A stretch of DNA of 51,750 bases from an uncultured Planctomycetales bacterium (GCA_964555945.1 CAZKUL010000002.1:1-51750); one strand, 5' to 3'. Shown: positions 210 to 29,754, counted from the stretch's first letter. Numbers and translations are program-made. Notes: generated by a model from the sequence alone, not told the origin.

Positions 210-782
210 TTATTTATCTATAGGATGCAGTACTTGGGGGGCGGCCGCATTATAATGCTGACCCTCAAATAATTTATCAACGATATTCTTATATAAAAAA
301 CTGTAGGTACCCACTGCTGCGTGTCCGGCAATCTTAAAACTGTAAGAACGTAGGGTCATCCGTGTCAAAGGGCCATTGTGCGTCAAAAGGACCAAAAATA
401 AAGCCAGGCTGCAAACCAAAATACCCCGGCCCACAGCCACAATACCTGCCGCATACTTATTAAATCCAGGATGGTTCGTCTCCACTTTAAAAAGAATTAA
501 GATTCCGTCACTGATAAATTTAAAAGCAAGGGCGACGATAAACCAAAGGCCGGCAAACACACACAAGTCCCAATACTCCCAGGGACAATGGATTTTGCGC
601 GCGACCCATGCGGCACAGAAACTATAATAGTGAAGGCTGACAAAGACCGCTACTACAACACCCAGAGACTTAAAAAACTCTGAAATAAAACCGTTCTTGA
701 TCCCTACAAAAATCATCCGAACGAATAAAATCACTAGCGCTGCATCAATCCAGTTAATACTCTTAATGATATGTGTTAACAT
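210..782 (-). CDS. cvpA: CvpA-family membrane protein
   Basis: 190 aa with 4 hydrophobic segments. The N-terminus INWIDAALVILFV...GIKNGFISEFFKSLG matches the CvpA pattern (WID, GF..E). Confidence 0.75.
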   Translation of the reverse strand: MLTHIIKSINWIDAALVILFVRMIFVGIKNGFISEFFKSLGVVVAVFVSLHYYSFCAAWVARKIHCPWEYWDLCVFAGLWFIVALAFKFISDGILILFKVETNHPGFNKYAAGIVAVGRGILVCSLALFLVLLTHNGPLTRMTLRSYSFKIAGHAAVGTYSFLYKNIVDKLFEGQHYNAAAPQVLHPIDK

Positions 783-953
783 AATCTTAATCTACGATGC
801 AATGTTGAAGTATAACATGTGCCCCTAAGACTGTCAAGGAACCGCTTGCCCCTTGCTTGTAACGTAAATGACTGATAATGATTCGCTTATGCACCAAATC
901 AAAGTATATTTGGCCTTATTTATAATGAAAAAACCTGAGGATAATCCGTGATC

Positions 954-3900
954 CTAAACCGCGGCAGGGGCAGGCATTGCACGCTCAATCGGCACGGGGA
1001 CCTGGGGACTTTGAGGTTTATACTCATTGAATTTCACAGATACAATGCGTGATACACCCCGCTCCTGCATGGTGACCCCATACATGATATCAGCGGCATT
1101 CATGGTATTTTTATTGTGCGTAATGACGATAAACTGGGCAATTTTAGCAAATTCTTTGAGCATCCCCGCAAAACGCCCCACATTAGACTCATCCAAGGCT
1201 GCATCAATCTCATCCAGGACGCAGAAAGGACTGGGATTGACTTTAAAGACTCCAAAAATAAGCGCAATGGCGGTCAATGTCTTTTCACCACCGGACATAA
1301 GACTGATATTTTGTAATTTCTTGCCCGGTGGCCTGGCCACAATATCAATGCCGCTTTCCAGCGCGTTTTCCGGGTCAAGCAAAACCAATTGGGCTTCCCC
1401 TCCGCCAAAGAGCATACGGAAATAAACTTTAAATTCTTCATTGACCTTAACAAAGGTATCCGTAAACATCTGCCGGGTGGTCCTGTTGATTTTTTGAATC
1501 GTAGAGAGCAACTGCTCGCGGGCGGTCAACAAATCACTTTGCTGCTTGGTCAAGAATTCATACCTGCCTTTGAGTTCTGCGAATTCTTCAATAGCCACAA
1601 AATTAACAGCACCATAAGACTCACAGCGTTTTTTGAGTTTTTCGATTTCTAGAGTGAGTTCGTCGATGCTGAGTTGGGGGAGTTGCTCGGCAGTGGGTTG
1701 GGAAGCTTGCTCGGCAGTCGGGGTTCCCTCGGTTGCTTCTTGTTTCGCGGACGGTGGTTCCACTGGGGTGCTTTCACATTCAATACTACCTTGCTCGGCA
1801 ACCTGCTCGGGGACACGACTAAAGTCATGTCCCCTGGTTGGCAAAGCTTCAGCTTGCGTGGTTGAAAGCTCTCGCACTGGTTCATTCTGGATTTGGTCCC
1901 AGTCGATTTTGTAGGCTTGGAGCAGGCGTTCTTTGAGGGTGCGTTGGTTGAATTGGACTTCCTGCTGGCGCATCTGCTGATGGTGCATTTGGGTTTTGAT
2001 ACGGATGATCTCATCTTCAATGCCCCTGATCCCATTACGCAGGGAATTGAGACGGCGGGACATTTCTTCCTTTTTGGCTGACTCTTCATTGAGGACGACG
2101 CTTAAAGCCTCTTTCTTGCGCTGTAACCCTTCAATCGCCGCCTGCAGAAGGACAATATCTTCGCTGACCTTGATTTTCCTGGCGGCCAATTCCCGGTTCT
2201 CCAATTCGAAACGGTTGATGTCCGTCAAATCTCGATCAAGATTCTGGGTATGTAAGGCCAAATTGTCCTCAAAGCCTTTACGCTTATCGGATAACGAAGA
2301 TAACTCTGTTTCCAATTGGGCCACGGCGATATTCAATTCCTGACGTTCATGGTCCTTGGATGCAATGGCCTCATGTTTGAACTTAATATCTTCCTGGCAT
2401 CGCGTAATTTGGCTCCCCAAGCCTTGCAAACCTATGGATAATTCTGTTTCTTGTATTTTTAAGGACGCGATGGTCGACTCGGCTTCAGCAAATTCAGAGG
2501 TGATGACATCCAATTCTCCCACGAGCTTTCCGGAAACCAATTCAATATCATTTTTCTGGGATTCCAACACGGAGAATTTCTTTTCTTGGTCCTGGATATT
2601 CTTAAGGACATCCTCAACTCCGTTGCCCTGCTCTTGAATCTGCTGGCTAAGCTGGCTTTTTAATTCGAGGGCCTGGGCTAGTTTTCCATCGATCGTGGCT
2701 ATGCGATCATCCAAATACTGCAAATCCAACTCCACATATTTGGTCTCATAGATAATTTCAAAAATTTCCGAAGAATTCTGATAGGTCTCATTCTCACCAT
2801 CCGGCACGCATTCAAAGCCATTGGGCCTTTTGACTTTGACTTCCTTGATCTTGCCGATAATGCCCGTTTGCTTCTCCGTCGGACAGACGGTCGCGGTAAA
2901 ACGCCCTTCAACAACCGGGTCAGGGATGTCCTGGTATTGGACCTGCATTTTCTGGATAAATTCTTTTTGGGACAATAGAAAGACATGGTTCTTTTCCAGG
3001 TCATCAATGGTGGCTTCCTGGACGGCAAAACGGCTTTTTAATTCTTCAAGGGCATGGCGGCGGGTATTGCAATCAGCCCAACAGGCTTCCAATTGGGCTT
3101 GCACTTGGGCAATCGCCTGGCTTAGCGCTTCGCTGCGTTGATAAACCTGCACCTTTTCATCATTGATCTTGGAATTTTCATGCTCCAGACGGGCCTTGCG
3201 TGCCTGGGCTTCCATGGTCCGTTTCATATTCTCGGTCAATTGGTTCTTGAAACGCACCTGCTGGCCATTGAGGCCTAAAATTTCACGCTCCACCTGCTCA
3301 ATGGAAGATTTAGATTGCTCTATAGCGTGCACCAGAACACTTAAATCCTTTTTCTTCTGCTCCAGGCCGGCTTGTAAGGCTGATAAATTCTGAGCCAGAC
3401 GCGACAGGGCTTCCTTGATCTCTTCAATCCTGGCTTGATGGGTGCTGCAACGCCCCAGAGCTGCGGCCTTGTCTGCCTCCAGACGCTGGCAAGTCTCATC
3501 CATGCTTTGCAAGCGCTCTTCATTAAAGGCAATCTGGCGGGTATTCATCGCCACTTCATTTTCTAAATGAATGTCCTGGGCTTTTAATTCATTAATGCGC
3601 TCATCGATCTCTTCTAATTGGAGGGCCTCATTGTCAATGCGGTTATTGAGGTCTTCCAGTTGCTTGGTCAAATCAAGTTCCTGGGTTTGTAAGGCCCTGA
3701 CAGCAGCGGCCATCTCTTCACTCTCATTGATGTAACGGGACATCTGATGGCGCGCAAAGGTCAATTCATAACCTTTGAGGACCTCAAACTCTTCCTTGTA
3801 GCGCTGGGCCTTTTTGGCCTGGCGTTCGATCGTGGCGATCTGGCGCTTGACCTCAACGACAATATCGTTGATCCGCAATAAATTATCTTCCGTGTCCTTA

Positions 3901-4442
3901 AGTTTGCTTAAAGCTTCTTTCTTTTTGCTTTTATATTTGGTAATACCGGCGGCTTCATCGAAAATCTGGCGGCGGTCATCCGGCTTGGCGGAAACAACCA
4001 GGTCTACCTTGCCTTGCTGGATGAGCGAATAGGCCTCGGCGCCAACGCCGGTGCCTAAAAAAAGCTCCACAATGTCTTTTAAGCGTGAGGTATTTTTATT
4101 GATCAAATATTCGCTTTCACCGGAACGGAAAAGGCGGCGCGTGACAATGACTTCATCATGATCGAGCGGTAAAATACGTGATTCGTTGGAAAAAGTGAGG
4201 CTGACTTCCGCAAAGCCTAATGGGGCTTTCTGGTCGGTGCCATTGAAGATGACATCTTCCATGGAGGACCCGCGCAACTCCTTGACGCTTTGCTCGCCTA
4301 AAACCCAGCGGATGGCATCAAAGACATTACTTTTACCGCAGCCATTAGGCCCTACGATAGCAGAAATGCCCGGTTGGAACTCCAACACGGTCTTCTGGGC
4401 AAAGGACTTGAACCCGAATATTTCTAAACGCCTAAAATACAT
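954..4442 (-). CDS. smc: Chromosome segregation protein SMC
   Basis: 1162 aa. Walker A is GPNGCGKSN. Long coiled coils flank a hinge. The signature LSGGEK and Walker B FCVLDEIDAALD lie at the C-terminus. Confidence 0.97.
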   Translation of the reverse strand: MYFRRLEIFGFKSFAQKTVLEFQPGISAIVGPNGCGKSNVFDAIRWVLGEQSVKELRGSSMEDVIFNGTDQKAPLGFAEVSLTFSNESRILPLDHDEVIVTRRLFRSGESEYLINKNTSRLKDIVELFLGTGVGAEAYSLIQQGKVDLVVSAKPDDRRQIFDEAAGITKYKSKKKEALSKLKDTEDNLLRINDIVVEVKRQIATIERQAKKAQRYKEEFEVLKGYELTFARHQMSRYINESEEMAAAVRALQTQELDLTKQLEDLNNRIDNEALQLEEIDERINELKAQDIHLENEVAMNTRQIAFNEERLQSMDETCQRLEADKAAALGRCSTHQARIEEIKEALSRLAQNLSALQAGLEQKKKDLSVLVHAIEQSKSSIEQVEREILGLNGQQVRFKNQLTENMKRTMEAQARKARLEHENSKINDEKVQVYQRSEALSQAIAQVQAQLEACWADCNTRRHALEELKSRFAVQEATIDDLEKNHVFLLSQKEFIQKMQVQYQDIPDPVVEGRFTATVCPTEKQTGIIGKIKEVKVKRPNGFECVPDGENETYQNSSEIFEIIYETKYVELDLQYLDDRIATIDGKLAQALELKSQLSQQIQEQGNGVEDVLKNIQDQEKKFSVLESQKNDIELVSGKLVGELDVITSEFAEAESTIASLKIQETELSIGLQGLGSQITRCQEDIKFKHEAIASKDHERQELNIAVAQLETELSSLSDKRKGFEDNLALHTQNLDRDLTDINRFELENRELAARKIKVSEDIVLLQAAIEGLQRKKEALSVVLNEESAKKEEMSRRLNSLRNGIRGIEDEIIRIKTQMHHQQMRQQEVQFNQRTLKERLLQAYKIDWDQIQNEPVRELSTTQAEALPTRGHDFSRVPEQVAEQGSIECESTPVEPPSAKQEATEGTPTAEQASQPTAEQLPQLSIDELTLEIEKLKKRCESYGAVNFVAIEEFAELKGRYEFLTKQQSDLLTAREQLLSTIQKINRTTRQMFTDTFVKVNEEFKVYFRMLFGGGEAQLVLLDPENALESGIDIVARPPGKKLQNISLMSGGEKTLTAIALIFGVFKVNPSPFCVLDEIDAALDESNVGRFAGMLKEFAKIAQFIVITHNKNTMNAADIMYGVTMQERGVSRIVSVKFNEYKPQSPQVPVPIERAMPAPAAV
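1809..1843. repeat. Hairpin repeat unit (PTRGH type) embedded in frame in smc
   Basis: ggggacacgactaaagtcatgtcccctggttggca. The same ends (ggggacacg...catgtcccctggttggca) recur at 7088-7136. It translates as LPTRGH inside a low-complexity SMC insertion. Confidence 0.7.
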
Positions 4443-4515
4443 ATTATCACTTTATAACATTTAACAGGGGTGTCAACGGAGAATTAATCTTTTTTCGACG
4501 GCATAAAATAGTGGT

Positions 4516-7500
4516 TTATCCAGATACGTGATTAATCCCAAGGAATTGCCGTAAATTCATTGGATGCATGTTGATAATCACCGCCGTGAATCCTGGGGCA
4601 TTTCGTAATTCTGCCAGCATGGCGGGATTAATGTGAAATCTTATGCTTCCTTTCTCATTTCCTCCACCTTCTCTTTTAGTTTCCACATCCATACGCGCAG
4701 GTGTCAAATCGATACCGCCGGGAGTTAAGTCACTATGGTGCATGGCTCTGTCCCCCATAACGTCACGATACAGCGTCTCCAATGTGGGGTCCTCATTCAA
4801 ATGATAAAATCTATTCTTTTCCCATGCTTGGGCACCTGCAAAGGCCTTTACCATTTTTTCCATTTCTTCTATCTCTCTTTGCATTTCTAAATATTCCCTA
4901 GATATTTGCTTATCCTTCAGTTCAAGACGTAACTCCTTTATTTCATGAAGCAGCACCCTCATCTCTTCAGGAGTTTGTATGACAGGAATCTTTTGAGGAA
5001 CGACCGGATGTGGTAGTCGCACCGGTGTATTTAAATCCTCCAAACTTTCAATACCCCTGATTAAAATATTAAAGTCCTTGGGATTTCTACCTGCAAACGC
5101 TGGCTCTTTCATTAGGACATTCTCTACCAACATTTCTGGTAAATGCAAAGCAAGATTTCCATGATGGACATAAATGATCATAGGTTTTTTAAATGCATCG
5201 TTATCGTCCTCATAATGGACTTTCAACACCTCACCTAAATTCCTGTAGAGCTCCGCTGTGATCATCGGTTGTGGTAAGAATACGGCATAACCCGGCCCCC
5301 ATGGCCTGACAGTCATCGTTTCAGGCGGTTCAGCAATCGCGAGGTGCATTTTATTCCAACTGTCTCTTTCATAAATAACGCCACCGGAGCCGACCGAAGC
5401 ATCATTCATCGCTGCATCACTTGCTTTCACCTCGTGACCATTTTTTAGTGCTGAATACATTGCTGGATCCAGCTTCAACAAATCATTCGCCACTCCAACA
5501 ATCTGGCGAATTTCTTGAACAGTAAAAATTGGTTCTTCGGAACGAAAATTCCATTCTTCCAATTGTTCCTGCAATAAGGTATCCGAAATATAGCCATCAA
5601 AATAATGTTTAAAAACAAATTCAAGATTTAATTTTTCTAATCTGTCTCCAAATCGAGCCAACATATAACTGATTTTTCGTTGAACCGCTTGTTCTTTAGA
5701 TAATCCAGAGAAACTAATCATTTTTAATTGTTCAACAAATCTATCCACCTCATCCTCAAACGCATAACTAAATTTACCAACAGATGCGTCATAAGAGAGG
5801 CCATTTCTAGGCACACCTATCTCACGGTACTCTGCCATTGTTCTTGCTTGATTGACTCCTCCATCATAAATGTAATCCAAAACTGCTGATCTCAAAATAA
5901 ATGGCACACTAATTAAGGTCGGCATTTGTTTAACCTTTTCAAAAAAGTCTCTCCCATTTAATCCATGTGGAAAATGTAAATCAGAAACTATAAGGTCAAT
6001 CCTTAAATTTCCTTCAGCAAACTTTTTTAAAGCAGCCTCACATGTTTCGAACGAAATTACATGGAATCCTTTACGTTCCAATATTTTCGTTGCTTTGCTT
6101 ATTTCTTTCGGATCATCATCAACTACAATAGCTATGGGGGCATCTGCTTTTAAAGATCCTATTGATGTCCTCATTGCTGCGTCAATAGAGAACTGGCCAT
6201 CATTTTTAGAAACATTACTTGTCAATTGTGCATTGTCAGGAAGCGGATTAGATGATTTAGTGCGACCATAATGAATTCTTGTATCAACCTCTTCGATTAG
6301 TTGTCTGAGTGTAGGTCGGTCGCGATTTGTTTGTATTTTAAGAAGTTCCGATTCTTCACTTATCACTCTTTTAGCCATGCTAACAGCGTATCTAGGCGGG
6401 ATCCCTGAATATCCTCCCTCTTCTGCCCAGGTCTTAAATCTCGCCAAAAGATTACTGTCAGTACTCATCGCTGCATTACTTACATCTGTGGTTATTCGCA
6501 TATTTACCTGGACCATGGCAGGGTTACCAGCGGGGGCATGGTTGGTTTCAACCTGAAACTCCGTCCCCATAGCCAAATCGGTTCCGCCGGAGAAGTATTT
6601 TCTGGGGATGGGTTGCTGGCTTAAGGGATCAACATCTTCCTTGATATAGTTGTAGGCGCCTTTTTTGAAGGCTTGGAGATAGCGTTGGTAGATGAGTTGG
6701 ACTTCGTTGTTTAAATCTTTGTCATTCTGAGCCGAAGGCGAAGAATCTAAAGGTGTCTTAAGATTCTTCGCTGCGCTCAGGATGACGGGATACTTTGGGA
6801 TGACGGAATTTTCATATTGTATTCCCACCACCTTCTTCTTATCTTCATAAACCATCGCCAGGATGCTGTCTTTGATTTTCTTCTTGTACCACGTGGCCAA
6901 AATCAGGGAATTGTAGACTTGACGCAATTGGGTGAAATTCTGGCCTTCGTTGACTTCTTTGGTGAGTTCGGGGATGACGATTGCGCGGACGACTTGGGAG
7001 CCTAAAGCGTTTATGTCTTTGGTTGACGTATGGGGGTTTACCTGGGATGCTTTCGCATTCAACAGTAGTTGGGTTGGCAACGTGCTTGGGGACACGTACC
7101 CCCGCCATGGCGGGGGAACATGTCCCCTGGTTGGCATCACATCGCGAAGGTCTTTCCCCATTGCCAAATAATCCTGTTCCAGCATGACTTTTAATTTGCT
7201 TTCTACCACATAGGCTGTCCCTGCCTTCGCATTCTCATAAACTACGGCTTTTTCGGGAATAATCCAGACCTTATTAAAGGTATTTACAGGAATATTGGTG
7301 GTCCCAAATTGTTGGGCGGCCTGTGCGTAGATGCGTTTCCAGAATTTCTTTCCTGTTTCTCCTTCGGGATAGATTAAGCTGGCGGTGATTTGCTTAAGCA
7401 TATAGTCCTCGGCAAGCAGATCGCGTCCCATTTCTGTGAAGCCGAAGCTGCGGGGAATGATGCGATTGCGTTCGTAAGGACTCAAATTGACCCAGAGGTC

Positions 7501-7830
7501 ATTTTCCGGGATGGTTAAAGAGGCAAGGAAGTATTTGATTAATTTTGTAGATTCTTTACGTAGAGACGCAAAATTTTGCGTCTCTACATCTCCTTTATCT
7601 AGAATAAAATCGAATCTAAATGGGTTCTCGGGATGGACTTTGATGCCTTTAAGAATTGGAGGGTTAAACGGGAGACTTAGGGGCACCATGACCCCGGGCG
7701 TGGGCAAAAAGAATTCATGAGCTTGGGCCGACGGTAAGGGACCAATGGTATTGATAAAAAATACCAATAAAAGAAAAAAGGCATGCTTTGGCCTTAAAAA
7801 AAGGCCACGCAAGAAAGTATTTGAAGGCAT
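4516..7830 (-). CDS. Large exported modular protein of unknown function (paralog A), with an internal receiver-like domain
   Basis: The ORF-track start at 7866 is GTG. The ATG at 7830 gives the signal peptide MPSNTFLRGLFLRPKHAFFLLLVFFINTIGPLPSAQA. The N-terminal ~330 aa are colinear with 13168..15486. Other features are the segment PIAIVVDDD...LIVSDLHFP, recurrent D/N-A/P-A-M motifs and a C-terminal GGIDL module. Confidence 0.85.
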   Translation of the reverse strand: MPSNTFLRGLFLRPKHAFFLLLVFFINTIGPLPSAQAHEFFLPTPGVMVPLSLPFNPPILKGIKVHPENPFRFDFILDKGDVETQNFASLRKESTKLIKYFLASLTIPENDLWVNLSPYERNRIIPRSFGFTEMGRDLLAEDYMLKQITASLIYPEGETGKKFWKRIYAQAAQQFGTTNIPVNTFNKVWIIPEKAVVYENAKAGTAYVVESKLKVMLEQDYLAMGKDLRDVMPTRGHVPPPWRGYVSPSTLPTQLLLNAKASQVNPHTSTKDINALGSQVVRAIVIPELTKEVNEGQNFTQLRQVYNSLILATWYKKKIKDSILAMVYEDKKKVVGIQYENSVIPKYPVILSAAKNLKTPLDSSPSAQNDKDLNNEVQLIYQRYLQAFKKGAYNYIKEDVDPLSQQPIPRKYFSGGTDLAMGTEFQVETNHAPAGNPAMVQVNMRITTDVSNAAMSTDSNLLARFKTWAEEGGYSGIPPRYAVSMAKRVISEESELLKIQTNRDRPTLRQLIEEVDTRIHYGRTKSSNPLPDNAQLTSNVSKNDGQFSIDAAMRTSIGSLKADAPIAIVVDDDPKEISKATKILERKGFHVISFETCEAALKKFAEGNLRIDLIVSDLHFPHGLNGRDFFEKVKQMPTLISVPFILRSAVLDYIYDGGVNQARTMAEYREIGVPRNGLSYDASVGKFSYAFEDEVDRFVEQLKMISFSGLSKEQAVQRKISYMLARFGDRLEKLNLEFVFKHYFDGYISDTLLQEQLEEWNFRSEEPIFTVQEIRQIVGVANDLLKLDPAMYSALKNGHEVKASDAAMNDASVGSGGVIYERDSWNKMHLAIAEPPETMTVRPWGPGYAVFLPQPMITAELYRNLGEVLKVHYEDDNDAFKKPMIIYVHHGNLALHLPEMLVENVLMKEPAFAGRNPKDFNILIRGIESLEDLNTPVRLPHPVVPQKIPVIQTPEEMRVLLHEIKELRLELKDKQISREYLEMQREIEEMEKMVKAFAGAQAWEKNRFYHLNEDPTLETLYRDVMGDRAMHHSDLTPGGIDLTPARMDVETKREGGGNEKGSIRFHINPAMLAELRNAPGFTAVIINMHPMNLRQFLGINHVSG
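6721..6804. repeat. Family B palindromic repeat inserted in frame in paralog A
   Basis: gtcattctgagccgaaggcgaagaatc (6721-6747) and gattcttcgctgcgctcaggatgac (6762-6786), plus a partial third unit. It encodes VIPKYPVILSAAKNLKTPLDSSPSAQND, a segment absent from paralog B at the aligned position. Confidence 0.8.
7088..7136. repeat. Hairpin repeat unit (PTRGH type) inserted in frame in paralog A
   Basis: ggggacacgtacccccgccatggcgggggaacatgtcccctggttggca, with the nested 18-nt perfect palindrome cccccgccatggcggggg. It encodes MPTRGHVPPPWRGYVSP, absent from paralog B. Confidence 0.75.
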
Positions 7831-7872
7831 ACGGGAAGTATAACACGTATATTTATAGACAACCACCAGGGG

Positions 7873-7901
7873 AAGAGAATTCTTATGGAAAGAGAATTCT
7901 T
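7873..7901. promoter_or_regulatory. Direct repeat of a 12-nt palindrome-containing box, AAGAGAATTCTT x2
   Basis: Identical 12-mers at 7873-7884 and 7890-7901. They sit between the GH1 stop (7908) and the paralog A start. Each contains the palindrome AGAATTCT. Confidence 0.35.
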
Positions 7902-7907
7902 CCAGGG

Positions 7908-9128
7908 CTAAACTTCTAGAATGCCTGTTTTGCAGACTTGAGCAAATTTGGTGGCACTATCTCTGACAGTTCTCTGGTAGGTCTTGAAATCAATATCAAT
8001 CAACCCAAATCGCGGCTTAAAGCCCTCTGCCCATTCGAAGTTGTCCATCAAGGACCAGTACAGGTATCCTGTGACATTGACACCCTGGTCCATGGCCAGG
8101 CGCACATTCTTGAGATGGCTTTGGATGTATTCCCAACGCTCGTTATCATCACTGGTACAAATGCCATTCTCAGCGACGATCACCGGCAATTTGTATTTCT
8201 TTAGTTCCAAGAGGACCTGGGACAGCCCTTGCGGATAAATGTCCCAGCCCAGGCCATTTTTCTTGCACGGATGATGGTTATCACTGCATTTTTCCATCAG
8301 CAAATTGCCAATCCACCAGCTATGCACATCCACCAGGTGCCTGGAATAATAATTAAGTCCGATGAAGTCAAGGGTCCTATAATGGGCCAAATGATCGAGG
8401 ACCGCAAAATTATAGATCTGCTTTCTCATGGCGACGGCCAATCGGTTGCGCAGGCGCTTGTCACAACCCACAATGGCCTGCATATGCTGGGCGATGCTGA
8501 CAGCAGGTTTATCTACCTTCAACTCTTTATAAATTCGATGGATCATCCGGTAGGCCTCGATATGGGCTTCATTCAAATTGTGATAGACGGCCTTGGTCTG
8601 AAGGATGGATTTTTTCTGCGGCGGCCACATGCCCCATAGAAAAGAATGAGAAAAATAAACAGTAGGTTCGTTGATGGTAAACCAAAAATGGACGCCGCGG
8701 GCCAGGGCACGGGTGACAAATTCACCATAACGCAAAAAGCGCTTCATGCTCCGTGCGTCACTCCAGCCACCAGAGTCAGCAAACCACTGGGGGTTGGTGA
8801 AATGGTGTAGAGTCACCATCGGTTCAATCCCACGCGTGCGCAGGGCCCTGATCACATTAATATAATGGACAATGGCTTCATCTGAAAATTCTCCCTCGCG
8901 GGGCTCGATACGGCTCCATTCGATGGAAAGGCGGTGGGCATTGTGGTTCAAACTTTTGACCAGGTCAAAATCCTGCTCAAAAAGCTCGTAATGGCGGCAG
9001 GCCGGGCCAGAGTTTTCATGGCCGGTCTTCTTCTCCCAGGCCCACCAATCCGCGTTGAGATTATTTCCTTCCACCTGATAGGAGGATGTCGCGGCGCCCC
9101 AGTAAAATTCTTTTGGAAATTGGATCAT
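7908..9128 (-). CDS. Glycoside hydrolase family 1 (beta-glucosidase-like)
   Basis: 406 aa. The N-terminus is FPKEFYWGAATSSYQVEGN. The acid/base motif is TINEP and the nucleophile motif is VAENG. Confidence 0.93.
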   Translation of the reverse strand: MIQFPKEFYWGAATSSYQVEGNNLNADWWAWEKKTGHENSGPACRHYELFEQDFDLVKSLNHNAHRLSIEWSRIEPREGEFSDEAIVHYINVIRALRTRGIEPMVTLHHFTNPQWFADSGGWSDARSMKRFLRYGEFVTRALARGVHFWFTINEPTVYFSHSFLWGMWPPQKKSILQTKAVYHNLNEAHIEAYRMIHRIYKELKVDKPAVSIAQHMQAIVGCDKRLRNRLAVAMRKQIYNFAVLDHLAHYRTLDFIGLNYYSRHLVDVHSWWIGNLLMEKCSDNHHPCKKNGLGWDIYPQGLSQVLLELKKYKLPVIVAENGICTSDDNERWEYIQSHLKNVRLAMDQGVNVTGYLYWSLMDNFEWAEGFKPRFGLIDIDFKTYQRTVRDSATKFAQVCKTGILEV

Positions 9129-9270
9129 TGAACTCCTTGCCCCCCTCCCTCACCCCTCCCCACAAGGGGGAGGGAAATAAAAAAGGGAATGATTGGAATT
9201 ATAGCATTCCAAAATAAAAATCCTTTAAAAATGTGTTTATTTGCTTTCAAGTAAAGAGTAAATTAAACGC

Positions 9271-10557
9271 ATGCGCGCCCTCATTAGATTGATCCAAAAA
9301 ACCTATCGCATGGTTGATCCGCTTGAAGGCTCGAGGGTCTTGCGTAATGTGACCTCACTCTCAGGCCTTCAACTCATCACCTATATTCTGCCCATTGTCA
9401 TCCTGCCCTATTTATTCAGGGTGATCGGGCCTGAAAAATTCGGGCTGATTGCTTTTGCCCAGGCCTTTGTGCAATATTTCATGATCCTCACCGACTATGG
9501 ATTTAGTGTTTCAGCGACCAAGGAAATTTCGCTCTGCCATGAGGATACGCCCAAACTGTGCAATGTTATCTCGGCGGTCATGACCATCAAGACCATCCTG
9601 GCCTTTGTGAGCTTGGTCATCCTCTGCGGGGTGGTCTATTTTGTCCCCCGATTCAAAGAGGATTGGATGGTCTATGCGTTAAGCTTTGGGGCGGTCATCG
9701 GAAACACCCTTTTTCCCACCTGGTTCTTCCAGGGTACGGAGAGCATGAAATACACCGCCAAACTCAATATCATCGGAGAATTGGCCTATGCGTTTGGTAT
9801 TTTTCTTTGCATCCATAGCCCCAGCGATTATTTACTGGTCCCCACGATCACGTCGCTCGCAGCGATCTTGACCGGCCTGCTTGGTCAATATATTCTTTTT
9901 ACGCGCTTTAAAGTGTCCTTTCAACTACCCAAAATGAAGGACCTTCACCTGCAAATGGAGGCTGGATGGAACATTTTTATTTCGGTCGTGGCCATCAATG
10001 CCTATACGACCACCCGTGTTTTTGCTGTGGGCCTTTTGACAAATAACACCCTGACGGGGTTTTATTCCATCGCTGAGAAAATTGCCAACGCCGTACAGAC
10101 CTTTCCCTTATATTCCTTTACCCAGGCGATCTTTCCGCGCTTAAGCAAAATCTTCCATAAAAATAAAGCCAAAGCCTATGAAATCATGCGCCATGTGCAA
10201 TTGATCACGGTCATCGTGTCCTTGATCTGCCTGCCATTGATCTTTATCCTGACGCCCCTTATTGTGAAACTTGTCTGCGGAGGGATTTATCCTGCGGCGG
10301 TATTATCTTTAAAATTCCTGCTTATCTCTATATTCTTTATCAGCGCCAACGCTTTTCGGGTACAGTTTCTATTGGTGTGCGGCCAGACCAAAGCTTACTC
10401 AAGGATCCATGTCACCATGGCCACCATCGGACTACCCTTGATCATCTTTTTCATTTATTCTTTTTCCTATGCGGGAGCAGCCATGGCCACGGCCATTATT
10501 GAAGCCGGTGTTTGTGCCTTAACCTATGTCACGGTTAAGAAACTGAACTTTGCATAA
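9271..10557 (+). CDS. Polysaccharide/oligosaccharide flippase (MOP/Wzx family)
   Basis: 428 aa and polytopic (about 12 hydrophobic segments). The N-terminal pattern is NVTSLSGLQLITYILPIVILPYLFRVIGPEKFG. This is the only plus-strand gene in the window. Confidence 0.8.
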   Translation: MRALIRLIQKTYRMVDPLEGSRVLRNVTSLSGLQLITYILPIVILPYLFRVIGPEKFGLIAFAQAFVQYFMILTDYGFSVSATKEISLCHEDTPKLCNVISAVMTIKTILAFVSLVILCGVVYFVPRFKEDWMVYALSFGAVIGNTLFPTWFFQGTESMKYTAKLNIIGELAYAFGIFLCIHSPSDYLLVPTITSLAAILTGLLGQYILFTRFKVSFQLPKMKDLHLQMEAGWNIFISVVAINAYTTTRVFAVGLLTNNTLTGFYSIAEKIANAVQTFPLYSFTQAIFPRLSKIFHKNKAKAYEIMRHVQLITVIVSLICLPLIFILTPLIVKLVCGGIYPAAVLSLKFLLISIFFISANAFRVQFLLVCGQTKAYSRIHVTMATIGLPLIIFFIYSFSYAGAAMATAIIEAGVCALTYVTVKKLNFA

Positions 10558-10560
10558 ATA

Positions 10561-10881
10561 TTATCTTGTCGTTTGAGCGGTGGATCCCGGGGAGACTCCA
10601 AGCAGGTTCTCAATCTGTTGACGGTCAGCCTGGACCTTCTCCTGCATTGGACGCATTTGTTTCCTGATAACAGTGATCTGAGTGGCAAGCTGCAGTATCT
10701 GGGCACGCAAGGGAGCCAGTTGCCCTTCTAATCCCTTTATCTCCTCGGCGAGTTTTTGGACTTGGGCCCGATTTGGATTTCCTAGGAACTTCGTTTGGGC
10801 TTGAGCCTTGGGGCTCATCAGGGATACCATACAAAACCCAAGAATCATCATCCTTAATCCAAGTAACATATCAGCCTCCAT
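10561..10881 (-). CDS. Hypothetical exported coiled-coil protein
   Basis: 106 aa. It has a signal-like N-terminus followed by a Q/L/E-rich heptad region. Its start lies 2 nt after the pyk stop. Confidence 0.55.
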   Translation of the reverse strand: MEADMLLGLRMMILGFCMVSLMSPKAQAQTKFLGNPNRAQVQKLAEEIKGLEGQLAPLRAQILQLATQITVIRKQMRPMQEKVQADRQQIENLLGVSPGSTAQTTR

Positions 10882-10882
10882 T

Positions 10883-12337
10883 TTATAAGGTGACTATTCC
10901 CAATGAATCCGTGTCCCCCGGATGCGGGGACAGCCTGCGTTCCGTCAAAATCACCGTATCTCCCTTTTTGATCAAATGATGTTTCCTAAGATTCTTGAAG
11001 ACGGACTGAGGGTCATGCGCAGTCTTTTTATTCAAGAAGAACGGCTGCACCCCATAAGAAAAATTCAGGAAATCGCAAACTTGAGGGTGCGCGCTAAAGG
11101 ACAATATCCAACAATGGGGTTTGAACCTGGAAATACGCCGGGCCGTGCTGCCGCTGGTCGTCGGTGTAAGAATGTAGCGGATGTCTAACTCCCTGGTGGC
11201 CCGGAAGGCATTGAGGGAAGTGACATCGGTGATGGTCAAGGCTTGGCATTGGGCCACGATATTGTTGATTTGCCGGCCTTCATCGTCAGGCAATTGCCCC
11301 TGATCACGCTGGTTCTCTGTGGTCAGGGCAATTTTAGCCATCATGCAAACCGTTTCAACAGGATATTCTCCGATGGCCGTTTCTTGCGAAAGCATGATAG
11401 CATCTGTGCCATCCAGAATGGCGTTGGCCACATCATTGACCTCGGCACGGGTCGGCCGCACATTCTGGGTCATGGATTCAAGCATCTGGGTGGCTGTTAT
11501 CACCGGGCGACCCATGACGTTGGCTTTTTGAATGAGCCTTTTTTGAATGCCCGGCACCTCTTCGATGGGAGTTTCAACACCCAAGTCCCCGCGGGCAATC
11601 ATCACCGCATCCGCGCTTTGAAGGATCTCGTCAAAATTCTCGATGGCTCCCCGGCGCTCAATTTTGGCCACCAGATAAACGCTGGCCTCTCGCCTTTTAA
11701 CAAATTCCCTGACCTTGATGATGTCCCTGGCCCTTTCGATGAAGGAAAGTCCGAAAATATTGACACCGTGCTTTAATCCAAATTCGATGATCTTTAAATC
11801 TTTGGCGGTGATAGGATTGATATTCAATTTGGTCCCTGGCAAATTCAGGCCCTTATGGGAGTTTAGTTTTCCACCGACGACGACCTTGCAATGAATATCA
11901 CGGCCCGAAATTCTTTGGACCTTTAACTGGATAAACCCGTCGTTTAGAAAAATGATCTGGCCCTTGGAGACTTTTCTCGGCAACTCTTTGTACTCAACGG
12001 GCAATAATTCCTGGGTACCAAGCACATTTCTCGTTGTCAGTGTGACGCTGCCTGCTTTTGTTAACAATACCGAATCATTCTGCAGGCGGCCGATGCGCAT
12101 TTTGACGCCGGGAAGGTCTATGAGAATACTGACCATGCGCCGGGTTTTGTGTCCGGCAGCGCGGATATTGCGGATATTGACGGCATGCTCCTTAAAATCT
12201 CCATGGGAAAAATTAAGACGGGCCACGTTCATCCCGCATTCGATCATACCTTCAATCTTTTGAGGCGAACACGACGAAGGGCCAATGGTACACACAATTT
12301 TTGTCTTATGAAAAGGCAGTTTCAATGGTGCTGGCAT
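10883..12337 (-). CDS. pyk: Pyruvate kinase
   Basis: 484 aa. Motifs seen are KTKIVCTIGPSS, NFSHG and MIARGDLGVE, plus a C-terminal regulatory domain. Confidence 0.95.
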   Translation of the reverse strand: MPAPLKLPFHKTKIVCTIGPSSCSPQKIEGMIECGMNVARLNFSHGDFKEHAVNIRNIRAAGHKTRRMVSILIDLPGVKMRIGRLQNDSVLLTKAGSVTLTTRNVLGTQELLPVEYKELPRKVSKGQIIFLNDGFIQLKVQRISGRDIHCKVVVGGKLNSHKGLNLPGTKLNINPITAKDLKIIEFGLKHGVNIFGLSFIERARDIIKVREFVKRREASVYLVAKIERRGAIENFDEILQSADAVMIARGDLGVETPIEEVPGIQKRLIQKANVMGRPVITATQMLESMTQNVRPTRAEVNDVANAILDGTDAIMLSQETAIGEYPVETVCMMAKIALTTENQRDQGQLPDDEGRQINNIVAQCQALTITDVTSLNAFRATRELDIRYILTPTTSGSTARRISRFKPHCWILSFSAHPQVCDFLNFSYGVQPFFLNKKTAHDPQSVFKNLRKHHLIKKGDTVILTERRLSPHPGDTDSLGIVTL

Positions 12338-12343
12338 CTGGTC

Positions 12344-12985
12344 TTATTTTCCGTAAATGACTTCTAATTGGGAAACCTTGGGAAATTCCGGATAAAATTC
12401 TCCCTGAGGCCCAATATATCCATTTCCTGATTTTTTAAGCGTAACTGCTGTATAGTTGCCTTTTTTATTGGGAATGTTGATTGTTATTGAATCAACATCG
12501 GCACTCGATCCATTCCCCACAGCGGATGTAATTTCCGGCGCTTCCGGTGTGGGAGCTTGATTGGCCTCAACTTCGGGAGGTTGGATGACTGCGTCGGGTT
12601 GGACGCCGGTTACCGGCGGAGGAACCGGTTGATAACCATAGCCATTATACTGATAATATGTCCCGTCGTTTAAATAATAGGTAGTGCCATTGATAAACAC
12701 AGGTTGGTAGATGGAGGGAGAAACAAGGACCGCATCCCCCGGACCGTAATAACCGGTATTATAATAGTAGTTATCCGGCCATAACGCAAAATCAAGTCCA
12801 ATATAGGAGCGGCCACGCCCACCATCATGGTGGTGATCTCCCCCATTACGTCCATGGCCATCATGGCCTCCATCATGGCCATGACCATCATGTCCACCGC
12901 CATGCCCATTCCAGTCGGCATAGGACCACGCAGGACGGAAGATGAGTAAAGCTATAATCAAAGGCAAAAACACTCTATTTTTCAT
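12344..12985 (-). CDS. Secreted His/Gly-rich, Tyr-rich protein
   Basis: 213 aa. Signal peptide MKNRVFLPLIIALLIFRPAWSYA, then GHGGGHDGHGHDGGHDGHGRNGGDHHHDGG, then a YY-rich segment (GTTYYLNDGTYYQYNGYGYQ) shared with 30574..30978. Confidence 0.75.
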   Translation of the reverse strand: MKNRVFLPLIIALLIFRPAWSYADWNGHGGGHDGHGHDGGHDGHGRNGGDHHHDGGRGRSYIGLDFALWPDNYYYNTGYYGPGDAVLVSPSIYQPVFINGTTYYLNDGTYYQYNGYGYQPVPPPVTGVQPDAVIQPPEVEANQAPTPEAPEITSAVGNGSSADVDSITINIPNKKGNYTAVTLKKSGNGYIGPQGEFYPEFPKVSQLEVIYGK

Positions 12986-13167
12986 ATAGTCTCCTGACTC
13001 AATACAACATTATTATAGCACATGAGGTCTCTTCAGCCCTCATTAAATTAGACAAGAGCTACTCACAAATAGTTGCATCAGCACAGGAGGTCTCAGTCTG
13101 GTTTAAAGAAAGAAATTTTAAAGAGAAATTTTACGAAAGTAGAAAGTAGACTAAGAAGTATTGGTAT

Positions 13168-15486
13168 TTAAGCTGGCTGGGCCTGAGATTCCACTCTCAG
13201 ATTCTTAAAAATAGATAAATTTGTCGCTGGTTGGATCTCCCAAATATGTGGCTCCAAGCCTTGGACGTTCATCATGGCTGGGTCTTGATTAGACAAGGGC
13301 AACGGCACGCCAGAACCATCCCGTCTTAACTTAAAACCCATTGGATCAAAGTCGATACCACCCCGGATCTCTGGTATCGCGACTATTTGTCTTTTAGTGA
13401 AAGTGACAGGGTTTGCGATCTCAGCCAAGTCATTATCTCTAACCTCATTTTGCTTTACTTGGACCATTGCCGCATCCACTATTCTTACCTTTATTGTTAG
13501 GCTGCCATTGGAGGACATGAGGTATTCGATTACGTAATCTCCACCCGTTAAGGCACTTGTCACAAGAGTTTTAACTCCCTCAATCTCATCTTCACGTATG
13601 TTTGGCATTTGAATTAAATGAATCTGTTCCACAATATAATGATCCACTCTTCCACGGAACCTGCCCTTTAAATCTTTTACTAATTTTCCAATAGTATTTT
13701 CTTGGCCGCTCTTTTTTTCACTAGCATGACGCGCCTCGGCTTCTAATAACGCCAACTTTCGTCTAATTTGTTCATCAGCCCTCACTCTTTTATATATCTG
13801 CAGAGCTATTTTAACATCAAGATCCTCCTGTAATATAAGAAAAACCGACCCCACAAATACTGCTGCCAATGCCCAAATGGGGAATGCCATGAACCCGAAT
13901 TCAGGCCAACTCATTTTGTAAGAATTATCATGGAGATTATCGTAGAATTGATGAACCGTATGTGAGGAAGATGCAGCCCCAACCGCAAAAAGCATCATTG
14001 CAGCGACCAATTTTCTAAATGCTCCCATTGCAGCGTCAATCTTCTTATCAAAAACCATAATTAACAGCCCATCTTGCAATGTATAACTTCGCAGACCGCT
14101 TCCTGTAAAATGAACGATCAAACCCAAGAAAGAACCTAGCCGTCGCATGGCTTTTGAGCTTAACTTTGGCAACCTTACAGTAACTCTATTGTTATTAATG
14201 CTCATGCCATCCACAATTTTATCTAATACTCTAAGATAAGCTTTTGTATCAGGCTTTCTCAACACTACAGAATTAAACCCAATGCCTGTCATGGCCGCAT
14301 TACTATTTAAGCCTGTAGCAGCAATAACAGCCTGTGCGGCATCCAACCGTGAAACTGTTTTGTAATCAAACTTTGCAGCCGCTTGCGCTGGGTTGGCTTC
14401 CTCTAATACAGATGCCATGGCCAAATTGGAGAATCCTCCGGAAAAATACTTCCGCGGAATCATTTGACCCGTAATAGGATCTTGGTCTTCTTTAATAAAA
14501 TTATACACACCCTTTCTAAACGCTTTTACATATTGCTGATAAACCTCTTGCTGGTCCTGCTCTGGATCAGCCAAATTAACGCCTTGCACCTTGTTCTTAT
14601 TAGCATACACCTGCGTTAAAATACTTTTCTTTAAAGCTTGTTTGTACCAAGTTGCCAAAATCATCCCATGAAACATTTGCCGTAAATTCGCAAAATTTTC
14701 GCCCTCATTGACTTCCTTGGTTAATGCAGGAATGACAATTTCTAGCATCATATTTTTTGCAATATCCTGAGGATTTTGATATTGGATTCCCGATTTCGCA
14801 AAATTAACACTAATTGTATTTTGTTTCTCATGATTCTTTTCTGTAGCTAAGTAATCTTTTTCCAGCTGAACTTTCAATTTACTTTCAACAATTAAGACTG
14901 TTCTATCTTTTTCATATACGGAAGCTTTATCCGGAGTTATCCATACTTTATTGAAAGTATTTATGGGTATATTGGTTGTTCCATACTTATGGGAAGCTTC
15001 AGTATAGATTTTATTCCAGAATTCTTTGCCGATTGCATTCTCAGGATATAGCAAGGATGAAGTGAGCTGTTTTAGCATATAATCTTGCGCCAAAAGATCA
15101 CGGCCCATTTCCGTTTTACCAAAATTTATATCAATAATGCGATTCTTTTCATAGGGAGAAAGATTGACCCATTGCTTATCCTCGGCTATTGTCATCGCGG
15201 CTAAGAAATATTTGATCAATTTCTCATACAATTCTTTCTTTTGATCCGTTGCAATTGGTCTGTCACCACGATCAATTAGAAAGGTAAAAGCAAAAGGATT
15301 TCTAACATCAATGGTCATGCCCCGAATGATCGCAGGGGTAAATTTAGGACTTAAATTTACCATTGTTCCAGGCGTAGGCATAAAAGACAATACTCCGTTA
15401 GCTTGAGATTGGGGTAGATATAAGGAAGACCCAACAAAGGCAGCAATGAGAATAATATGAATGATTTTAAAATTATGGGGTTTCAT
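13168..15486 (-). CDS. Large exported/membrane modular protein of unknown function (paralog B)
   Basis: 772 aa with a signal peptide. The N-terminal ~330 aa are colinear with paralog A (NLSPYE.NRII, TEMGRDLLA.DYMLKQ, NTFNKVWI, IPRKYFSGG). It has central hydrophobic segments, recurrent DAAM motifs and a C-terminal GGIDF module. Confidence 0.85.
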   Translation of the reverse strand: MKPHNFKIIHIILIAAFVGSSLYLPQSQANGVLSFMPTPGTMVNLSPKFTPAIIRGMTIDVRNPFAFTFLIDRGDRPIATDQKKELYEKLIKYFLAAMTIAEDKQWVNLSPYEKNRIIDINFGKTEMGRDLLAQDYMLKQLTSSLLYPENAIGKEFWNKIYTEASHKYGTTNIPINTFNKVWITPDKASVYEKDRTVLIVESKLKVQLEKDYLATEKNHEKQNTISVNFAKSGIQYQNPQDIAKNMMLEIVIPALTKEVNEGENFANLRQMFHGMILATWYKQALKKSILTQVYANKNKVQGVNLADPEQDQQEVYQQYVKAFRKGVYNFIKEDQDPITGQMIPRKYFSGGFSNLAMASVLEEANPAQAAAKFDYKTVSRLDAAQAVIAATGLNSNAAMTGIGFNSVVLRKPDTKAYLRVLDKIVDGMSINNNRVTVRLPKLSSKAMRRLGSFLGLIVHFTGSGLRSYTLQDGLLIMVFDKKIDAAMGAFRKLVAAMMLFAVGAASSSHTVHQFYDNLHDNSYKMSWPEFGFMAFPIWALAAVFVGSVFLILQEDLDVKIALQIYKRVRADEQIRRKLALLEAEARHASEKKSGQENTIGKLVKDLKGRFRGRVDHYIVEQIHLIQMPNIREDEIEGVKTLVTSALTGGDYVIEYLMSSNGSLTIKVRIVDAAMVQVKQNEVRDNDLAEIANPVTFTKRQIVAIPEIRGGIDFDPMGFKLRRDGSGVPLPLSNQDPAMMNVQGLEPHIWEIQPATNLSIFKNLRVESQAQPA

Positions 15487-28299: not shown

Positions 28300-29754
28300 T
28301 CATGAATTCTTTAATTCCACGAGTGCTTTTCTGGCGGCCAGGCAGATGGCTTCATAAGGATCTTGGGCACCCATGGATATGCCCTCCTTCTCTAAATCTC
28401 CGGGAAGGAGGGGTTTTCCGAATTTAATGTTGATCGGATGGCGTTTGGGATACTTTGCGGTGCTGGGCCAAGCCTCATGGGCCCCGGTGATGGCCACCGG
28501 CAGGAGCATGGCGCCTGTCACCTTGGCCAAAATACCAAAGCCTTTTTTAAATTCCCCTATCTTACCGTCCGTGCTGCGTAAACCCTCGGGAAAAAAGCAC
28601 AGGCCCTTACCGTGTTCCAGAACAAAATAACAGCTGCGCAAGGCTTCCAGAAAATGGGTGGAAAAATCAAAGGGAATAAACCTCCCCATCTTGACAAAAT
28701 TCCGCAAAACACGGTTCTTGATAAACGGCCTAAAAAAATAGGGTCCGAAGACAAAATAAAAGATCTGAAATACCGGCCTGCGGGGCAGGCAAGCGCCAAT
28801 GGCCGGACCATCAAGAAAACTGGTATGATTGCCATACAAAATATAAGCGCCTTCTAGAGGGACATTCCCGGCCCCTTCTTGCTTAATACTGAAGAATAAT
28901 TTAAAAAGCAAACAGTCGATGGCTGTAAACAGAAATCGAAACAACCACGCAAAATAACCAGTTGTCAATTCAAGCATCCGCAAGGTGTCTTGCTTAGGGA
29001 GAACCTTCAGATTTTCTTTCCAATAATCTTCACCGGGGGATATGTGTTGGTCTTCCAGCGGTATATCTTTGGCACCTATCAGGGCCTCCGTTATGCTCAA
29101 TATCAGGTCCTTGACGCTAAAGGCCCTTGATATTGATTCAATCTTCAAGTCCGCGCTAAAAGCTGACTGAAGCGCTGAAGCCAGTTCAATTCTCCCCAGA
29201 GAATCTACCCCTAAGTCCAGTTCCAAAGAATCCTCCAGGATGATGGGCCTTCGGATGCCGCTTTGTTCCCTGAGGCATTGGAGTATCCTTTTGCCGATCA
29301 CGGAACCTGTTAAGGCAAGATCCTGCCCTGAAAGTCTTCCTGACACCGGAAGAGCGCCCTCTTTGCCGGCGATCACCCGTTGCTCGTAAATGGCCTTAAT
29401 CTTATTTCTATTGATCTTGCCGGAGGCCTTTAAAGGAAAATCATCAAGTGTTACCGTAAAGCCTGTAATCCTTTTGTATAATGGAAGCCCCTGCGAGGCA
29501 TTATCAAACCTTTCCTGGAGCACTCCACGGAGATTCACTTCTCCAAATTCCCTGAAACTATCGAGATCAGGTCGAATGACAGCCCAAAGCACTTTTGAAT
29601 TTACAACCCCATGCATGCCTGAGACTGAAAAGACGCACATCTCTTTAATAGGGGCCAGCTTTGTATAAAAATCTTCCAACTCTTGAGGGTAAATCTCTTC
29701 CCCCGAATTCAAGACTATAGTATCCTCAATGCTGGTTATGGAAGCTTCTGCCAT
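28300..29754 (-). CDS. Fusion of an acyl-AMP ligase C-terminal subdomain, an acyl carrier domain and a PlsC-type acyltransferase
   Basis: 484 aa with a strong SD (GGAGG) before the ATG. The N-terminus matches only the post-hinge part of ANL enzymes (IVLNSGEEIYPQELE...ASGKINRNKI). The PP-binding motif is LGVDSLGRIE, and the PlsC motifs are NHTSFLD and FPEGLRS. Confidence 0.8.
   Translation of the reverse strand: MAEASITSIEDTIVLNSGEEIYPQELEDFYTKLAPIKEMCVFSVSGMHGVVNSKVLWAVIRPDLDSFREFGEVNLRGVLQERFDNASQGLPLYKRITGFTVTLDDFPLKASGKINRNKIKAIYEQRVIAGKEGALPVSGRLSGQDLALTGSVIGKRILQCLREQSGIRRPIILEDSLELDLGVDSLGRIELASALQSAFSADLKIESISRAFSVKDLILSITEALIGAKDIPLEDQHISPGEDYWKENLKVLPKQDTLRMLELTTGYFAWLFRFLFTAIDCLLFKLFFSIKQEGAGNVPLEGAYILYGNHTSFLDGPAIGACLPRRPVFQIFYFVFGPYFFRPFIKNRVLRNFVKMGRFIPFDFSTHFLEALRSCYFVLEHGKGLCFFPEGLRSTDGKIGEFKKGFGILAKVTGAMLLPVAITGAHEAWPSTAKYPKRHPINIKFGKPLLPGDLEKEGISMGAQDPYEAICLAARKALVELKNS

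Follow-up and report, generated by a model that had tools for sequence, protein, structure and literature searches.

Omnitrophota are widespread and almost uncultured bacteria, many of which are thought to be host-dependent or predatory nanobacteria. In the multifunctional autoprocessing repeats-in-toxin (MARTX) proteins, constant N- and C-terminal regions frame a strain-variable mosaic of effectors, with short linkers where processing occurs. In polymorphic toxins of the CdiA type, the constant and variable parts are demarcated by the VENN motif (PMC3150448). The giant 'Archaeovorin'-type proteins of Omnitrophota, as presented in passages of two preprints (bioRxiv 10.1101/2023.11.21.568195; 10.64898/2026.06.07.730766), span 10-147 kaa (thousands of amino acids) and carry many transmembrane (TM) helices along with C39 or S8 peptidase domains; a passage of the former describes "information about cleavage points" as missing, though cleavage is suspected. 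The present analysis concerns two genes, A and B, in a 51,750-nucleotide stretch of DNA from an uncultured Planctomycetales bacterium (GCA_964555945.1 CAZKUL010000002.1:1-51750), the whole of which is referred to as the window. Both encode members of a family of leader-bearing proteins with one architecture: the two constant ends are coupled, the cargo between them is replaced in a cassette-like manner, and a short peptide, [DN]-x-A-M (DxAM), stands at the module boundaries. We hold with moderate confidence that this is a lineage-specific, Sec-exported polymorphic cargo family, in which the constant ends would serve handling and DxAM would be the junction between modules.

Architecture of the A/B family

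Genes A and B are both real open reading frames (ORFs) on the minus strand, as judged from an ORF check of the window. Leave-out hidden Markov models (HMMs), for which the window sequences were set aside, nonetheless recognise the N-domain and the C-module of both proteins. The parts are listed below with residue and window (nt) positions.

Gene A: 4516..7830, minus strand; 1104 amino acids (aa) from the ATG; signal peptide, N-domain, cargo and C-module; stop codon at 4516-4518.
A signal peptide: aa 1-37, nt 7720..7830, minus strand; ends in ...PLPSAQA and is followed by HE, read from sequence.
A constant N-domain: aa 39-417, nt 6580..7716, minus strand; ends in the invariant RKYFSGG; leave-out HMM E 1e-141.
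A variable cargo: aa 418-1036, nt 4723..6579, minus strand; 619 aa.
A [DN]-x-A-M junctions at aa 418, 436, 452 and 550: nt 6568-6579, 6514-6525, 6466-6477 and 6172-6183, minus strand.
A [DN]-x-A-M junctions at aa 788, 805 and 1027: nt 5458-5469, 5407-5418 and 4741-4752, minus strand.
A receiver (Response_reg) domain within the cargo: aa 568-645, nt 5896..6129, minus strand; PF00072.
A constant C-module: aa 1037-1104, nt 4519..4722, minus strand; GGIDL...IRFHINPAML...GF..VIINMHP; minor subtype; leave-out HMM E 7e-15.
Gene B: 13168..15486, minus strand; 772 aa; signal peptide, N-domain, cargo and C-module; stop codon at 13168-13170.
B signal peptide: aa 1-29, nt 15400..15486, minus strand; ends in ...LPQSQA and is followed by NG, read from sequence.
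B constant N-domain: aa 33-352, nt 14431..15390, minus strand; leave-out HMM E 3e-154.
B variable cargo: aa 353-707, nt 13366..14430, minus strand.
B [DN]-x-A-M junctions at aa 354, 396, 484 and 671: nt 14416-14427, 14290-14301, 14026-14037 and 13465-13476, minus strand.
B hydrophobic helix in the cargo, with a long helix after it: aa 534-552, nt 13831-13887, minus strand.
B constant C-module: aa 708-772, nt 13171..13365, minus strand; GGIDFDP...LRRDGSGVPLPLSNQDPAMM..GLEPHIWEIQP; major subtype; leave-out HMM E 1e-24.

An earlier note on this DNA, made from the sequence alone, had described two exported proteins with a shared N-domain of no assignable family, bodies that diverge after it, a receiver-like domain in A and a shared C-terminal module, and all of these features are borne out. 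In the leaders of both A and B, a basic n-region is followed by a hydrophobic core and then by an A-x-A-type site. The N-domains are 45% identical over 421 columns (BLASTP, E 3e-106), while past the FSGG motif BLASTP returns no significant A-B alignment. Scans of A and B yield no Pfam or NCBIfam match at E<=1 for either the N-domain or the C-module. The receiver within the cargo of A is real, as it aligns to positions 2-74 of the 111 in the PF00072 profile with 34.1 bits, above the gathering score of 30.2 (E 3.3e-8). Apart from one weak receiver match, the cargo of A has no homologue among 5.8e9 proteins, and a search with it for stand-alone or giant-protein homologues returned nothing usable. 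The TM segments and coiled coil ascribed to B are reduced to a single strongly hydrophobic segment (534-552) and a long predicted helix (534-590). Protein B is identical to P0001, a protein on an ENA contig.

The family extends far beyond the window. Significant matches to B number at least 3,283 proteins of 620-1350 aa, covering ~45% of B (the N-domain), and all that bear a source name are from Candidatus Omnitrophica metagenome-assembled genomes (MAGs). A profile of the C-module, searched against 1.84 billion cluster representatives (50% identity), matches 5,335 at E<=1e-3, of which 2,792 remain at E<=1e-10. A scan of the GTDB species representatives with the full family alignment gave at least 583 confirmed loci, the best 80 of which are distributed over 48 assemblies, a single MAG holding as many as 8. 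Taxonomy was read from record titles, and those of the best 80 loci name Omnitrophota or Omnitrophica in 48 cases, "uncultured Planctomycetales" in 31 and "bacterium" in one. As in the window, family genes are clustered at 10 of the 80 loci, with two to three genes within 8 kb. A literature search gave no account of the family or of the motif, and the passages searched in the two preprints on giant proteins (10.1101/2023.11.21.568195; 10.64898/2026.06.07.730766) make no mention of the N-domain, the GGID module or DxAM. A and B belong to a very large undescribed superfamily that is, as far as sampled, restricted to Omnitrophota. A viral origin is unlikely, since the N-domain occurs on only 3 of 2.9 million IMG/VR contigs. 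In the IMG/VR contigs L082, L083 and L084, the N-domain gene lies near one contig end, and prophage flanks or misclassified cellular DNA are possible.

Both constant parts are strongly conserved and sharply delimited. An N-domain alignment of 120 sequences contains 44 invariant and ~85 nearly invariant positions, for example in WVNLSPxE, DYxLKQ, NKxWI and RKYFxGG. Comparisons of cargo and recombination used 210 non-identical full-length members taken from the best-scoring matches; the median pairwise N-domain identity over their 21,945 pairs is 60.6%. The C-module begins at an invariant GGID and is ~62 aa long. In the major subtype (...IKRDGxGVPLPLxQQDMAQL...), to which B is close, and the minor subtype (...GxIKFHIDPAMLQQLQNAPGF...), the sequence after GGID differs; the minor form is found in A and three others (4 of the 210 members), whose N-domains are 60-84% identical in this small sample. 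Among the 150 best profile matches, all 122 new cluster representatives have a C-module that ends 1-25 aa from the C-terminus, and the longest carrier in the 150 has 2,568 aa.

The two ends almost never occur apart. A C-module is present in 61 of 72 complete GTDB genes with an N-domain; four more genes are split by a stop or frameshift, and two have a divergent GGID tail. Both ends thus occur together in at least 65 of the 72. Apparently N-less C-module proteins also lack leaders and start at an internal Met. They look like gene-calling artefacts or fragments and not like true free-standing tails, and one of them, P0149 (986 aa), was traced to a frameshift artefact, with its upstream N-domain scattered over three frames of an error-rich contig. 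On the ENA long-read contig L081 (nt 690-6961), a family gene of ~2,090 aa is called as several ORFs; its N-domain is likewise spread over three frames, which shows that many of the C-module-only 'proteins' in databases are gene-calling artefacts. Single in-frame stops interrupt two family members from GTDB, L023 (TAG, nt 10284-10286) and L053 (TAA, nt 4692-4694), the tail part continuing in the same frame; these could be pseudogenes, assembly errors or cases of read-through.

The two AlphaFold2 (AF2) models, one for each protein, have mean predicted local distance difference test (pLDDT) scores of 63.7 and 55.2 and show the same alpha/beta layout of the N-domain. In the B model the N-domain is mostly at pLDDT 65-95 and has two long hairpins. 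The C-module of B is modelled as one strand and two short helices; residues 670-724 fall below pLDDT 50, and the last 30 residues, at pLDDT 79-93, form a single 10-residue strand and a helix. Foldseek found no PDB fold match at E<=1e-3 for either model, and a sequence-profile search of the PDB gave only a low-complexity Huntingtin artefact in variable columns.

One explanation for the coupling is that the N-domain and C-module fold as a single unit from whose base the cargo is displayed as a giant insertion, as in an S-layer or envelope scaffold, with DxAM as a linker cap. The lone strand of the B C-module would need a partner sheet, which the hairpins of the N-domain might offer, and members with short cargo, down to ~200 aa, do exist. 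The rarity of separate ends is also in keeping with such a unit, as is the co-variation of N and C identities (Spearman 0.70), which is, however, expected from plain co-inheritance as well. Moreover, the C-module takes a different shape, at lower confidence, in the A model, and we regard a shared fold of this kind as very unlikely.

Cargo replacement and the DxAM junction

Cargo similarity is rare within the family, with only 105 of the 21,945 pairs (0.5%) sharing any at E<1e-6, and cargo length ranges from ~200 to 2,200 aa. Two members can be 86-97% identical in the N-domain and 53-95% in the tail and still carry unrelated cargo of different lengths. In the pairs P0193/P0231, P0025/P0043 and P0021/P0042, similarity stops 0-3 residues past DAAM or DEAM(TT), and in six pairs it picks up again exactly at GGID. 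By these alignments, cargo is replaced wholesale between the constant ends, in the manner of a cassette.

The recurring motif in the cargo had been noticed earlier as a D-A-A-M punctuation, with the expectation that it would exceed chance and mark domain boundaries. The motif is real, and A has one more copy than was then listed, NPAM at residue 436. Counted as [DN][APR]AM, it has 7 sites in A and 4 in B, whereas composition shuffles average ~0.05 and none of 5000 reaches the observed count. Leaving x free adds one site to each protein just past FSGG, DLAM 418 in A and NLAM 354 in B. No other six-frame ORF of at least 100 aa in the 51.7-kb window contains either the motif (scanned with x = A or P) or GGID. 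Across the variable regions of the family, DAAM is over-represented ~100-fold (60 observed vs 0.58 expected), the most over-represented tetrapeptides are chiefly D-x-A-M forms, and the logo reads [DN]-x-A-M-[TA]-[AS] with free flanks. The broader pattern [DN].AM is enriched 17-fold in family cargo (586 vs 33.6 expected). In contrast, 568 non-family ORFs of the same loci show no enrichment (44 vs 37 expected), which rules out DxAM as a general linker of Omnitrophota proteins.

The boundary role is supported by where homology begins. In between-member BLAST comparisons of variable regions, 36 of 168 internal high-scoring segment pairs (HSPs) start exactly on the D of [DN]-x-A-M, and 41% start within 5 aa of a motif, compared with 6% at random. 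The ends of HSPs cluster 3-7 residues beyond the next motif. Modules of ~125 aa with DxAM at both ends are placed differently in different proteins, as in P0013 (159-285) and P0209 (767-898). These starts, together with the divergence of close pairs right after DxAM, uphold the proposed marking of domain boundaries.

Selection acts on the peptide rather than on the DNA. All four Ala codons and both the D and N codons are in use at the motif, no purine-rich Shine-Dalgarno-like signal was found upstream of the motif ATG, and codon usage deviates only in that GCG and GCC are modestly favoured ahead of the ATG. A nucleotide-level signal, whether an internal Shine-Dalgarno sequence with ATG or a recombination site, was rejected because synonymous codons vary. 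Judged from codons and alignments together, DxAM is a module junction under peptide-level selection, and it is a candidate processing or recognition site.

If DxAM were processed, the proteins would be exported polyproteins cut at the motif, most simply between A and M of [DN]-x-A-M, with the N-domain or a separate enzyme as the protease. The pattern itself, with P3 and P1 conserved and P2 free, suits a peptidase site such as those of Ser-Lys-dyad peptidases, and the N-domain contains invariant Ser110, Lys139 and Lys180 (B numbering) as candidate protease residues. Its conservation is unusual for an exported domain and fits an enzyme. Only four to six motif residues are conserved between free flanks, they sit precisely on module boundaries, and in the models they lie in low-confidence linkers or at helix starts; the six motifs of the A model from 436 to 1027 are all in segments with pLDDT <50, as are 48% of all its residues. 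Cleavage is also suspected for the giant Omnitrophota proteins in the passages of the published work, which give no sites (bioRxiv 10.1101/2023.11.21.568195). Against this, the N-domain lacks a peptidase signature, contains no invariant His or Cys and matches no peptidase fold. A D or N followed by the helix-forming Ala and Met also resembles a helix N-cap, and cleavage leaves the constant C-module unexplained. We regard a polyprotein as distinctly unlikely.

Outside the family, a distance of exactly 383 residues separates two [DN].AM sites in a conserved protein of ~1,000-1,250 aa from four genomes (L064, L041, L019 and L013). Here an orthologue has probably conserved the sites by coincidence, and they are unlikely to be family junctions.

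Predicted export, cargo content and gene neighbourhood

Among the 135 members with a complete N-terminus, 133 pass a signal-peptide heuristic, and their leaders have a basic n-region and a core of ~15 residues, with A-x-A in 87 of the 135. The composition of the proteins points in the same direction. Cysteine accounts for 0.11% of family residues, cargo included, vs 1.23% in 568 neighbouring ORFs, an 11-fold depletion. No Cys occurs past the leader in 119 of 210 members, compared with 2 of 51 large neighbouring ORFs; between them, A and B contain a single Cys, which is in A. Bacteria without disulfide catalysts are known to exclude Cys from the proteins that they export from the cytoplasm.

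The recognised cargo domains comprise Response_reg, DnaJ, cNMP_binding, PP-binding (acyl carrier protein, ACP), methyltransferases, Metallophos, Hpr_kinase_C, HTH, PGK and HATPase. The census combined Pfam scans of 48 members with precomputed Pfam annotation for 120. By crude hydropathy, 76% of cargo regions are without a strong hydrophobic segment. To work, receiver, J-domain, cNMP-binding and ACP domains ordinarily depend on the ATP and partner proteins of a cytoplasm.

Cargo of this type raises the question of whether the proteins leave the cell at all. In an intracellular signalling scaffold, the leader would be an uncleaved anchor or unused, and the Met of DxAM would be a relic or internal start codon of captured genes; that Met is invariant and precedes T, A or S, as does the Met of many natural N-termini, and homology blocks begin at the motif. 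The Cys depletion extends to the cargo, however, and the leader features are the signature of cleaved Sec signals, which together make a scaffold less likely. Nor does a purine-rich Shine-Dalgarno-like signal precede the ATG of the motif, whose D/N and Ala are conserved as residues of the peptide. We consider an intracellular role extremely improbable.

Since the recognisable cargo domains are those of cytoplasmic signalling, the proteins may act in another cell. A specific form of this idea is that the N-domain and GGID tail serve an undescribed, Omnitrophota-specific delivery route by which thousands of different cytoplasm-type modules reach host or prey cells, with [DN]-x-A-M as a processing code that releases the modules. 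We regard this version as distinctly unlikely.

The favoured reading, a Sec-exported polymorphic cargo family, is as follows. Each member starts with a Sec-type signal peptide, followed by the constant N-domain of ~320 aa that ends in RKYFSGG, by cargo of one or more modules, each opening at [DN]-x-A-M-[TA]-[AS], and finally by the constant C-module of ~62 aa from GGID. Both constant ends are inherited together, and recombination swaps the cargo, with its 5' break point right after a DxAM and its 3' break point at GGID. The constant ends could provide shared handling for all members, such as export, envelope retention or delivery, and each cargo could provide a member-specific activity outside the producer's cytoplasm.

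The C-module could alternatively be a dedicated sorting or anchoring signal for a lineage-specific secretion or sortase-like system, perhaps removed on export. A sorting tag was the proposal of the earlier note, and part of it stands: in all 122 representatives the module is strictly C-terminal and never internal, it occurs only on leader-bearing proteins, its GGID start is invariant and sharply bounded, and the cargo it follows is extremely diverse. The suggested likeness to the type IX secretion system C-terminal domain (T9SS CTD) or to PEP-CTERM is not supported. Instead of being scattered among unrelated proteins, the module is tied to one N-domain (61 of 72 genes); it lacks a TM helix with a basic tail, and it matches no known sorting-signal model at E<=1. 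Its maximal 15-residue hydropathy has a median of 1.17 vs 2.23 for the leaders, and its last 8 residues average 0.73 K/R. The model, with one strand, short helices and a first half below pLDDT 50, does not clearly show an autonomous beta-sandwich. The co-occurring secretion or sortase system anticipated in that proposal did not appear either, as no secretion, sortase or protease gene recurs beside the family genes at the 80 loci. No known class of tag fits, and we think a dedicated sorting signal unlikely.

Several points count against the favoured reading, among them this lack of recurring machinery. The roles of all parts are inferred from sequence, and export by the Sec-type leader is predicted from sequence heuristics. 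Cytoplasm-type cargo is awkward for an envelope or extracellular role unless it is delivered into another cell. The Pfam census of 48 and 120 members revealed no toxin family in the cargo, most of which has no Pfam match and may hide toxins, and neither a clear immunity-like downstream gene nor an orphan cassette was found. A same-strand ORF lies within 150 nt of 30 of 57 genes; these ORFs range from 61 to >440 aa and include only two homologous pairs. Gene conversion, and not cargo swapping, could account for part of the high N-domain identity between members, and the AF2 models are moderately confident and give no fold clue.

A conserved gene neighbourhood was not found among the 80 loci, where an ABC-F-like ATPase recurs most often (11 loci), ahead of a membrane protein (8) and a GT2 glycosyltransferase (7). 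In the window, A and B are separated by a GH1 glycosidase, a Polysacc_synt flippase, a pyruvate kinase and two small secreted proteins, all unrelated to A and B. SMC lies downstream of A and a His-rich secreted protein downstream of B, and the wider window, with SMC, cytochrome bd and two-component systems, has no link to either gene. The unannotated small ORFs beside B have no homologues near other family genes.

The His-rich protein (window 12344-12985, minus strand; 213 aa) has a signal peptide and a run of His, Gly and Asp (HGGGHDGHGHDGGHDGHG...HHHDGG), followed by a region rich in Tyr, Gly and Pro. Neither a Pfam match nor a homologue beside other family genes was found for this protein, which may be a secreted metal-binding protein. 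Elsewhere in the window, a single ORF of 1141 aa (40623-44048, minus strand) joins a major facilitator superfamily (MFS) transporter, an acyltransferase and an AMP-binding enzyme in an LplT/Aas-like fusion for lysophospholipid recycling. A second acyltransferase, with a PP-binding domain, is located at 28300-29754.

Significance and comparison with known systems

The A/B family bears on how Omnitrophota act on other cells and on why their exported proteins carry "cytoplasmic" domains. With more than 5,000 clusters at 50% identity and several genes per genome, it is among the largest uncharacterised families definable for the phylum. It is also experimentally tractable, as it offers a defined constant N-domain without a known fold, a constant tail and a four-residue junction for cargo swapping, and these handles make it testable whether Omnitrophota deploy a polymorphic effector arsenal. 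If a delivery route with DxAM as its processing code exists, it would give the exported multi-domain proteins of this host-dependent phylum their first defined signal for cleavage or for a junction. Should the function turn out to be something mundane, such as scaffolding of the envelope, the DxAM/GGID cassette would still be a clear new case of how proteins evolve by modules outside the toxin systems already known.

The giant proteins of Omnitrophota, in the passages of the preprints that describe them, resemble the A/B family in phylum and in the combination of leaders or TM segments with cytoplasm-type domains (receiver, methyltransferase, HATPase). Cargo of the T9SS shares with the family an N-terminal Sec leader, diverse content and a conserved C-terminal module of <100 aa. 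In contrast, the A/B tail matches no CTD model at E<=1 in NCBIfam or Pfam, is not predicted as an Ig-like sandwich and is coupled to a constant 320-aa N-domain. Genes of the T9SS machinery (PorU, PorV, SprA and others) were not seen in the 51.7-kb window or the 8-kb flanks, and Omnitrophota are not known for a T9SS. The LPXTG, PEP-CTERM and GlyGly-CTERM signals of the sortase, exosortase and rhombosortase systems consist of a motif, a TM helix and a basic tail at the very C-terminus, a composition that the C-module does not have.

MARTX proteins are alike in that constant ends surround variable modules with short linkers. They differ in their glycine-rich repeats, Peptidase_C80 (cysteine protease domain, CPD) and type 1 secretion context, none of which is found for A, B and the 48 members. 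The A/B family is also far smaller (0.6-2.6 kaa) and has a Sec leader, and its processing is only putative.

The closest resemblance is to the polymorphic toxins, including CdiA-CT with VENN, Rhs with PxxxxDPxGL, and MafB. In both, a short conserved peptide marks the point beyond which similarity abruptly disappears, as described for VENN and PxxxxDPxGL (PMC3150448). Near-identical proteins exchange their variable parts, and many paralogues occur per genome, often in tandem. The differences are that there is no homology, that the variable part of the A/B family is central and flanked by a second constant module, and that it has several junctions rather than one. Polymorphic toxins use type 5, 6 or 7 secretion (T5, T6, T7) trafficking domains, whereas the A/B family uses a Sec leader, and no recognised toxin domain, evident immunity gene or orphan cassette was found here. 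As the Pfam census recognised no toxin domain of the kind expected of such systems, we do not count the family as a member of any known one. It does have the constant region, short demarcation motif and unrelated variable region by which polymorphic toxins are recognised, and it thus follows the polymorphic-cargo principle.

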